Part shown: piece by piece, positions 8,863 to 9,486 of the stretch
How the letters are laid out: each line of letters opens with the position of its first letter
How positions within the stretch are numbered: position 1 is the first letter of the stretch
IMG/VR virus record: IMGVR_UViG_2778261635_000003
Length of the DNA stretch: 40,443 nucleotides
Strand: one strand, 5' to 3'
Source: a virus
Taxonomy: Duplodnaviria; Heunggongvirae; Uroviricota; Caudoviricetes
Made by a program: the position numbers and the translations under genes
The notes under the pieces: generated by a model
The model's input: the letters and a program-made list of their open reading frames with translations, nothing else
Databases searched by the model: none
Told to the model about the DNA's origin: nothing

Positions 8863-8904
8863 ATTAAACACAATGTGTTTTCTTGTGTCAACACGAAATG
8901 TGTT
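8863..8904 (-). promoter_or_regulatory. Leftward early promoter (PL-like) with overlapping operator palindromes
   Basis: On the minus strand: -35 TTGACA (8891-8886), 17-nt spacer, -10 TTTAAT (8868-8863); palindrome AAACACA-A-TGTGTTT (8866-8880) over spacer/-10 and ACAC-GAAAT-GTGT (8892-8904) at the -35. Confidence 0.5.
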
Positions 8905-8934
8905 TTGTGGTGGGTGTCATATGATGATGGTACA

Positions 8935-8961
8935 AAAAAAGCCCGCTGATAGCGGGCTGAT
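8935..8961 (-). terminator. Intrinsic terminator after the repressor gene
   Basis: Read on the minus strand: stem GCCCGC/GCGGGC with loop, followed by a run of seven T. Confidence 0.55.
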
Positions 8962-8988
8962 TGGCATATTACTGTGATAGCAAGATCA

Positions 8989-9408
8989 TTACTCCGGTGG
9001 GGGATTATCTTTAAGCCTGCCTCTCAAATATTTTTCTACATACTCATCGATTTCTTTTAGCCGGACTTCAAATAGCTCAATCATTCGTTGTTGTTCTGAG
9101 CCCGGTAGCTGGTTAAACAACTCAAGAAGTTTTCGTTGGGATTCATTTAACCACAATTCAGAAGATTCCTGTTCTCCAAAGAGGAGCTCAGGAGGAGATA
9201 TGCCAAGAGCCTTTCCCAATACGACAGCGTCATGCACTCCAACATTTCTGCTGCCCGCCTCATAGTTACCTATACGCGATTGCGTCCATCCGCAGATTTC
9301 AGCAAGTTTTCCTTGAGATAAACCAAGCTTCTGCCTGCGCTCTTTAAGACGCATTGCAATTTTGTCATTGAGCCTACTAGCGGCAATTTTTTCGTTTTCT
9401 TTTTCCAT
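8989..9408 (-). CDS. Prophage repressor, HTH XRE family (CI/RacR-like)
   Basis: 139 aa; helix-turn-helix LSQGKLAEICGWTQSRIGNYEAG; RBS AAGGA; divergent from the cro-like gene across an operator-rich intergenic region. Confidence 0.85.
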   Translation of the reverse strand: MEKENEKIAASRLNDKIAMRLKERRQKLGLSQGKLAEICGWTQSRIGNYEAGSRNVGVHDAVVLGKALGISPPELLFGEQESSELWLNESQRKLLELFNQLPGSEQQRMIELFEVRLKEIDEYVEKYLRGRLKDNPPPE

Positions 9409-9419
9409 TGCATCCTTGT

Positions 9420-9486
9420 ATCACGAATCGTGATTTACATAAAACACAAAACAGCTTGACCATATAACACAAGATGTGTTTAAAAT
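9420..9486. promoter_or_regulatory. Divergent promoter/operator region (OR-like) between repressor and cro-like gene
   Basis: Palindromes ATCACG-AAT-CGTGAT (9420-9434) and AACACA-AGA-TGTGTT (9466-9480); rightward -35 TTGACC (9456-9461) with the second palindrome over the spacer and -10. Confidence 0.5.

Follow-up and report, generated by a model that had tools for sequence, protein, structure and literature searches.

A lambda-type immunity switch in a Rac-like Escherichia coli prophage, with a third operator that is probably tuned to the Cro-like protein

The immunity region and its operator sites

The DNA analysed here, a stretch of 40,443 nucleotides from a virus of the class Caudoviricetes (IMG/VR record IMGVR_UViG_2778261635_000003; hereafter the window), carries an immunity region in which a repressor gene and a Cro-like gene (cro) diverge from a 96-bp gap that holds three 15-bp sites at 23-bp steps (OR1, OR2, and OR3, at the rightward promoter, PR), with further sites (OL1 and OL2) at a leftward promoter (PL) beyond the repressor gene (Table 1). 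Over the 1.5 kb that span this switch, the window is 100% identical to the E. coli chromosome NZ_CP058709, where the annotated gene order of the prophage is int-xis-ralR-recT-recE-kilR-DUF1391 / helix-turn-helix (HTH) / HTH / ydaT / replication genes; the immunity region was found, at a coverage of at least 80%, in 153 of 5,426 complete E. coli genomes, including O157, O145, O103, and O111 strains. The locus is a real lambda-type switch of an already known kind; its anatomy, statistics, conservation, and covariation are shown here. We put at roughly two in three the probability that it serves as immunity switch in a lambdoid E. coli prophage of the Rac type, one in which a DicA-like repressor would act at the OR1, OR2, and OL sites and OR3 would be tuned to the Cro-like protein.

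A BLASTP alignment with K-12 DicA extends along the full repressor (29% identity over 129 aa, E = 2e-15), and the best match of this protein is the NCBIfam DicA model NF007257, with 57.2 bits over model positions 4-131 of 135, a score that does not reach the curated DicA cut-off of 101 bits. The alignment displays the DicA hallmark, i.e., an N-terminal HTH plus an LLELFN.LP.SEQ C-terminal domain, which consists of two helices in this 139-aa protein; Pfam gives HTH families only, an S24/LexA-like autocleavage (peptidase) domain was not found in the repressor, and the exact LexA box (CTGT-N8-ACAG) occurs zero times in the 40-kb window. The recognition helix reads Q43-S-R-I-G-N-Y-E (GWT-QSRIGNYE in context); a single-sequence AlphaFold model, which is poor (pLDDT 63.5) and was used for helix positions only, suggests that this helix begins at Q43. 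The 3' part of cro contains a run of nine C (9696-9704) that encodes PPP, most relatives having six C (PP), and in one relative (L151) a frameshift at this run leads to a different Cro tail; the run looks like a slippage hotspot.

Table 1. Positions of genes, candidate promoters, and operator sites of the immunity region in the window
Feature	Position	Strand	Description
PL candidate -10	8863-8868	-	TTTAAT, 17-nt spacer from TTGACA; alternative TAATAA at 8866-8861
OL1	8866-8881		half-site AACAC(A) at 8867-8872; overlaps PL -10; in the N3 register (8867-8881) AACACA-ATG-TGTTTT, one mismatch
PL -35	8886-8891	-	TTGACA, read in the sequence; nearly invariant in relatives
OL2	8890-8904		full operator AACACGAAATGTGTT, AACACG-AAA-TGTGTT; centre 8897; overlaps PL -35
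Intrinsic terminator of repressor gene	8940-8958	-	8-bp stem, T-run
Repressor gene	8989-9408	-	139 aa; HTH_3 domain and short helical C-terminal domain
Candidate extended -10 of the repressor promoter (PRM)	9415-9423	-	TG-a-TACAAG; predicted start at or next to ATG (9408)
OR3	9420-9434		ATCACGAATCGTGAT, ATCACG-AAT-CGTGAT; centre 9427; overlaps candidate PRM extended -10
OR2	9443-9457		AACACA-AAA-CAGCTT; centre 9450; right half overlaps PR -35
PR -35	9456-9461	+	TTGACC; mostly conserved in relatives
OR1	9466-9480		perfect operator AACACAAGATGTGTT, AACACA-AGA-TGTGTT; centre 9473; in PR spacer
PR -10 region	9479-9486	+	TTTAAA (9479-9484, 17-nt spacer) or TAAAAT (9481-9486, 19-nt spacer)
Cro-like gene (cro)	9505-9750	+	81 aa, HTH_3; recognition helix I-Q-S-R-L-A-N-Y-E
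YdaT box	9740-9757		TTGATTCATGAAAATCAG; spans ydaT start codon; 17/18 copy of TTGATT-N6-AATCAA
ydaT (CII-like activator)	9747-10169	+	PF06254, E = 5e-11; phrog_163 CII-like

An initial annotation of this region had placed operator clusters on both sides of the repressor gene, overlapping divergent early promoters in the manner of lambda OL and OR, and this proposal held up; all of the palindromes and promoter hexamers that it quoted are present where it had put them. With at most one mismatch, the pattern AACACANNNTGTGTT (AACACA-N3-TGTGTT) has three matches in the window (8867, 8890, and 9466), all flanking the repressor gene, as compared to a mean of 0.10 in shuffled windows, where three matches were reached in 0 of 100 shuffles. 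The window-wide scan for both palindromes that had been recommended thus found the AACACA type only beside the repressor gene and ATCACGAATCGTGAT only once; a two-mismatch operator-like sequence, CACACATTGTGTG at 13453-13465, lies inside a methyltransferase gene and was judged a chance match. The two AACACA palindromes named initially do exist, but the single core that they were said to share does not, as their spacers differ (N1 at 8866 versus N3 at 9466), and one dimeric HTH protein would not be expected to accept both spacers. The N1 form, AAACACAATGTGTTT at 8866-8880, is a 7-1-7 palindrome that in the window is built on the OL1 half-site.

The centres of the sites are separated by steps of 23 bp throughout, both in OR (9427, 9450, and 9473) and in OL (8874 and 8897). 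The ATCACG palindrome, which had been taken for a different kind of site, shares the 6-N3-6 geometry and the CAC/GTG core with the repressor sites and differs from the repressor consensus at essentially one symmetric position; since its centre, exactly 23 bp from that of OR2, is in an even register with OR2 and OR1, it holds the OR3 position of a tripartite OR. Perfect 6-N3-6 palindromes as such are common in the window (14 versus 9.7 ± 2.9 in shuffles), and, while ATCACGAATCGTGAT is unique there, its pattern is expected 1.8 times at up to two mismatches; ATCACGAATCGTGAT is therefore not improbable alone, and its significance comes from position, register, and conservation.

With regard to promoters, PL and PR have a common geometry, with 4 nt between the -35 hexamer and the operator in the spacer (N3 register), and the GTGTT-TAAT arrangement at the PL -10 is also seen at the PR of groups E and F among the relatives described below. 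The choice of the PR -10 is ambiguous; relatives retain TA[AG]AAT. The leftward promoter had been called near-consensus, and TTGACA-17-TTTAAT is indeed present, but it was not listed by a consensus promoter scan of the window, which missed PL, PR, and the repressor-gene promoter; PL and PR escaped the scan because TTTAAT and TTTAAA lack A at position 2 of the -10 and TAAAAT needs a 19-nt spacer. Every related group has TGn-TAnAAn on the repressor strand, directly behind OR3 and 6-7 nt ahead of the repressor ATG, which predicts that the repressor is transcribed from an extended -10 promoter starting at or next to its ATG. Counted from a predicted start at 9408, the centres of OR2 and OR3 fall at -42 and -19; in lambda, OR2 and OR3 sit at -42 and -19 relative to PRM.

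Conservation, cassette exchange, and covariation

A total of 160 relatives were taken from IMG/VR with the repressor and Cro proteins as queries, and 59 unique immunity regions were aligned. In OR, the arms of OR3 (9420-9426 and 9429-9435), the sequence AAAACACAAAA (9441-9451), and the arms of OR1 (9466-9471 and 9476-9481) are invariant; variation falls in the palindrome centres (9472-9475 in OR1), in the spacers of 8 bp, and in the right half of OR2, its left half alone being conserved. At PL, conservation covers ATTAAACAC (8863-8871) and both arms of OL2, the centre of which is variable. The most variable stretch of PL is 8872-8885, i.e., the right arm of OL1, where relatives show AATGCGTTT, AATACGTTT, AAATGATTT, and other variants. 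Since this right arm varies and the left arm is kept, the perfect palindrome at 8866-8880 is a lineage-specific accident on a conserved half-site; it had been named as the leftward operator, a role that cannot be upheld for a palindrome of which only the left arm is conserved, and the best site, 8890-8904, had gone unnamed. Judged from the aligned regions, the conserved full leftward operator is OL2 (8890-8904), and each promoter pairs a full site with a half-site at a distance of 23 bp.

This layout recurs in phage vB_Apl-pPE4 and in several E. coli prophages, there with another repressor (64% identical), in which the recognition helix GWSGSSRIANYE (SGSSRIANYE) replaces GWT-QSRIGNYE; their operators read CTCACG-N3-yGTGAr at OL and OR alike, and both arms have changed symmetrically, as those of true operators should. 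Homology between these heteroimmune loci and the window is lost near 8859 and begins again precisely at the ATG of cro, and in E. coli E9 a cro that is identical at 246 of 246 nt adjoins the other cassette. Comparison of the window with loci L366 and L001 places the left end of the exchangeable cassette just to the right of GGATATG (~8858) and its right end at the base that precedes the ATG of cro; the cassette holds OL, the terminator, the repressor gene, and OR, with cro outside, and its flanks are 95-100% identical between heteroimmune prophages. OR3 retains ATCACG in both cassettes. Two repressor types and two Cro variants were seen in every one of their four possible combinations, in each of which the site at the repressor start begins with ATCACG.

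Further queries with a second repressor and a distant Cro, the latter placed first in the alignment, allowed 106 unique intergenic regions to be tabulated together with both recognition helices; the first alignment-based Cro scan gave the same 80 loci as the earlier scan with the Cro query, and the family has at least 583 members in IMG/VR. Repressors with the helix xQSR[IV]GNYE have AACAC[AG] arms at OR1 in 65 of 65 regions, and those with S..SR have [CT]TCAC[GA] arms at OR1 in 24 of 24; the repressors sampled from groups E to H are 57-65% identical to that of the window, and these groups have a full AACAC site at OL too, beside TGTCAA. The repressor-proximal arm of OR3, by contrast, goes with Cro: helices of the form [IN]Q[SP]RLANYE are accompanied by ATCACG in this arm (64/64), whichever the repressor class, and RQSR.. 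helices by ACCACG at OR3 in 24 of 25 regions; on visual reading, ACCACG is also present at three loci with GRSR and one with NRSR. Both repressor classes pair with both Cro classes, and OR1 and OL thus follow the repressor, while OR3 follows Cro. Where the Cro helix has gained an arginine, the OR3 arm shows C in place of T (G on the opposite strand), which would fit classical Arg-guanine pairing.

Searches beyond this family added little. A scan of species-representative genomes with the Cro protein yielded only two Pseudomonas loci, with unrelated repressors and operators of the GTAAT type, and a scan of IMG/VR for TATCACGNNNCGTGATT gave mostly chance matches, of which one locus alone was useful. 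This locus, L174 from a GC-rich metagenomic phage, has three 6-N3-6 sites at 12498-12559, spaced by 24 and 23 bp (ATCACGCTGCGTGAT, AACACGTCGCGTGTT, and ATCACGCAACGTGAA), between a YdaS-type gene and the gene for a 177-aa protein with an HTH that is 51% identical to that of the window repressor; the spacing of these sites indicates that the operator geometry reaches well beyond enterobacteria.

Occupants of the operator sites

The mechanism that we propose is as follows. The repressor would recognise 15-bp AACAC(A/G)-N3-(T/C)GTGTT operators, with dimers presumably binding cooperatively on each pair of full site and half-site (OR1+OR2 and OL2+OL1), and would thereby silence both PR, which drives the cro-ydaT-replication operon, and PL, which drives the DUF1391-DicF-kilR-recET operon; at OR2 it may activate its own promoter. 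Upon derepression, Cro would bind OR3 first and shut off repressor synthesis, as a protein on OR3 would occlude the repressor promoter; OR3 may also be used weakly by the repressor. YdaT would act through its own box at a PRE-like promoter, as in Rac and CP-933P. Looping between OL and OR is plausible, as the geometry (576 bp from OL2 to OR1, with 23-bp steps) would allow it. The initial annotation had taken the ATCACG palindrome to suggest that a second DNA-binding protein, such as a Cro-like or YdaT-like one, acts at the switch; by comparative covariation this second protein is probably the Cro-like one, which speaks for the first half of that suggestion, while YdaT, with its own box at 9740-9757, is unlikely.

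A number of observations weigh against assigning OR3 to Cro in this way. Each assignment of a protein to a site is one that we infer from sequence, and the covariation of Cro with OR3 represents few independent evolutionary events, essentially two Cro clades. No site of the OR3 type other than 9420-9434 was found at PL or elsewhere in the window, and a strictly OR3-specific Cro could therefore not lower PL or PR as lambda Cro does; with this single site, any effect of Cro on PL or PR would need cross-recognition of the AACAC sites. Both the repressor and the Cro helices contain Q-S-R, so that the repressor could also bind OR3 well, and L174 mixes ATCACG and AACACG in one operator region with one protein only that has a QSR-type helix. 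Finally, PR, PL, and PRM all have imperfect, ambiguous -10 hexamers, and an AAGGA motif resembling a Shine-Dalgarno sequence, 4 nt before the repressor ATG, speaks against a purely leaderless mRNA in the lineage of the window.

Several of these observations would be accommodated if OR3 were instead the weakest of three operators of the resident repressor, serving negative autoregulation, with Cro recognising the CAC-N7-GTG core common to the three sites, with no special preference among them, and with the constancy of ATCACG reflecting common descent and this core. The two helices share Q-S-R-[IL]-[GA]-N-Y-E; A and G are both tolerated at position 6 of bona fide repressor sites, which leaves OR3 different at one position per arm; L174 combines ATCACG and AACACG sites with its single QSR-type protein; and in groups B, C, and E to H the distal arm of OR3 is a half-site of the repressor type. 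However, the proximal arm tracks the class of the Cro helix (ATCACG or ACCACG) in both repressor classes, and not the class of the repressor, and it is conserved within cassette DNA that is otherwise dissimilar. We consequently regard this explanation as unlikely, although it deserves to be taken seriously.

That the ATCACG palindrome is a site of the CII-like YdaT or of a host transcription factor appears very improbable. In Rac, the region between racR and ydaS also contains ill-defined sequences that YdaT protects (PMC11879457), but the defined YdaT box is an 18-bp element with an N6 spacer, present here as a 17/18 copy at 9740-9757, to which OR3 bears no resemblance, and the OR3 half-site covaries with the Cro helix. 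There is similarly little to recommend an RNA hairpin in the leader of the repressor mRNA, affecting stability or translation: such a hairpin would sit just 5' of AAGGA and the start codon if transcription began upstream, and the variable centre with its kept arms resembles loop and stem, but the predicted fold is weak and no better than that of shuffles (-6.8 kcal/mol, z = -0.97), the arms in cassettes B and C are non-complementary (ATCACG with TGTGAA or AGTGAA) and compensating changes are absent, and the conserved extended -10 predicts a transcript start downstream of OR3. Chance palindromes in an AT-rich intergenic region with no regulatory role have a negligible probability, since, common as perfect 6-N3-6 palindromes are in the window (14 versus 9.7 expected), three AACACA-type sites are far above expectation, arms are invariant amid variable flanks, and arms change symmetrically in heteroimmune cassettes, so that the comparative data already contradict this explanation.

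Related switches, prophage setting, and implications

The operator consensus of lambda, TATCACCGnCGGTGATA, is ATCAC-N5-GTGAT, and the recognition helices of both lambda CI and lambda Cro begin with Gln-Ser. OR3 in the window, TATCACGAATCGTGATT, has the half-site and the spacing of this consensus operator, and the Cro and repressor helices in the window begin with Gln-Ser as well. Further likenesses are the divergent repressor and cro genes, the tripartite OR at steps of about 23-24 bp, the second operator cluster at the leftward promoter, and the positions of OR2 and OR3 at -42 and -19 from the predicted repressor start. In contrast to the lambda switch, which is summarised in PMC8630535, the window repressor has no RecA-sensitive S24 domain; OL, made up of a full site plus a half-site, does not mirror OR; OR1, OR2, and OL use an AACAC half-site, unlike OR3; cro is not included in the exchangeable immunity cassette; the role of CII is taken by YdaT; and the distance between OL and OR is 0.58 kb, as compared to 2.4 kb in lambda.

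Published switches of the same kind include DicA with its operator Oc (PMC3441716), RacR with 6-N3-6 operators (PMC9638921), and PaaR2/YdaS with OR and OL (PMC8630535). The DicA/DicC/dicBp system of Qin (PMC3441716; bioRxiv 10.1101/2023.04.14.536235) resembles the switch described here in having a short repressor, homologous over its full length, without a cleavage site, in having a repressor gene without an obvious consensus promoter, and in that a downstream promoter drives an operon with DUF1391 (ydfA-like) and DicF. It differs in that the operators in the window are unrelated to Oc (TTGTTAGTCATAACTAACAA), for which a search with TTGTTAGT-N4-ACTAACAA at up to three mismatches found no match in the window, and in that the Cro-like protein is unrelated to DicC. 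With regard to RacR/YdaS/YdaT of Rac (PMC9638921, PMC11879457, PMC5700373), the prophage is of the same type, with recET, kilR, and ydaT, the interval from the repressor gene to the Cro-like gene holds three inverted-repeat operators of the 6-N3-6 form, and the ydaT start codon is spanned by a YdaT box; this box has been experimentally defined as TTGATT-N6-AATCAA (PMC9986795), with ATGATTCATGAAAATCAA across the start of Rac ydaT (PMC11879457). However, RacR is a different repressor with (T/A)TAGGC-N3-GCCTA(T/A) operators, which are absent from the switch (the window has only two two-mismatch matches, far off and below chance expectation), and YdaS was reported not to repress racR, whereas we propose that Cro acts at OR3. 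Finally, PaaR2/YdaS/YdaT of the cryptic E. coli prophage CP-933P (PMC8630535, PMC9986795) is likewise a lambda-like circuit, in that case experimentally shown, with OR and OL clusters bound by both regulators and a PRE activated by YdaT; its paaR2 mRNA is leaderless, like that of lambda cI (PMC8630535). The CP-933P proteins are different ones, its operator repeats are of the GTTTAGTAA type, and it has a toxin-antitoxin pair downstream of the repressor, of which the window has none. In the literature searched, the operator specificity of the present switch is not described, and a search on its protein accessions found nothing.

A gene for the small RNA DicF (7826-7877 on the minus strand; Rfam RF00039, 53.8 bits versus a gathering score of 48) belongs to the leftward operon, in which it follows PL and the DUF1391 gene, and a match resembling STnc100 at 7647-7836 is slightly under threshold. 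Given this position of DicF, the repressor would control an operon of the DicF/kilR cell-division inhibitor type, like DicA in Qin. Upstream of the recE start (6814), a short gap holds a perfect 7-1-7 palindrome, CTGCACAGTGTGCAG, at 6887-6901. Two further inverted repeats resemble the YdaT box: TTGATTTTTAATAATCAG (one mismatch; 2116-2133) lies between a DUF1187 open reading frame and the start of xis (1777-2064 on the minus strand), the place expected for an int/xis promoter driven by an activator of the CII type, and TTGATTGAAATTAATCGT (two mismatches; 10166-10183) overlaps the ydaT stop codon. The palindrome AACGCT-N3-AGCGTT occurs three times at intervals of about 200 bp (10217-10231, 10409-10423, and 10616-10630, with 0, 1, and 0 mismatches), first just upstream of a replication-region gene of 376 aa that starts at 10247 and then twice within it; these copies could be origin iterons or sites of another regulator. 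An open reading frame of 193 aa at 17226-17807 on the plus strand is annotated as an ORF6N-domain protein, ORF6N being an antirepressor-like domain.

We tentatively suggest that in this family of enterobacterial prophage switches the operator codes of the two regulators are partly split, a possibility to which we give somewhat less than an even chance: OR1, OR2, and OL would be read by the repressor, OR3 would be a dedicated Cro site with a half-site like that of the lambda consensus, and the cassette of repressor and operators could be swapped between phages while cro stays, resulting in a modular immunity with Cro outside the immunity determinant. The code that we propose, in which AACACR belongs to xQSR[IV]GNYE, yTCACR to S..SR, and the OR3 half-site to the Cro helix, could allow immunity groups of many uncharacterised prophages to be predicted from sequence only, and it offers orthogonal repressor-operator pairs for circuit design. 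This immunity type would keep an operon of kilR, DicF, and recET silent. If it is true that Cro reads OR3 only, the classical view of a lambdoid immunity region as cI, cro, and operators together would fail for this family of switches.

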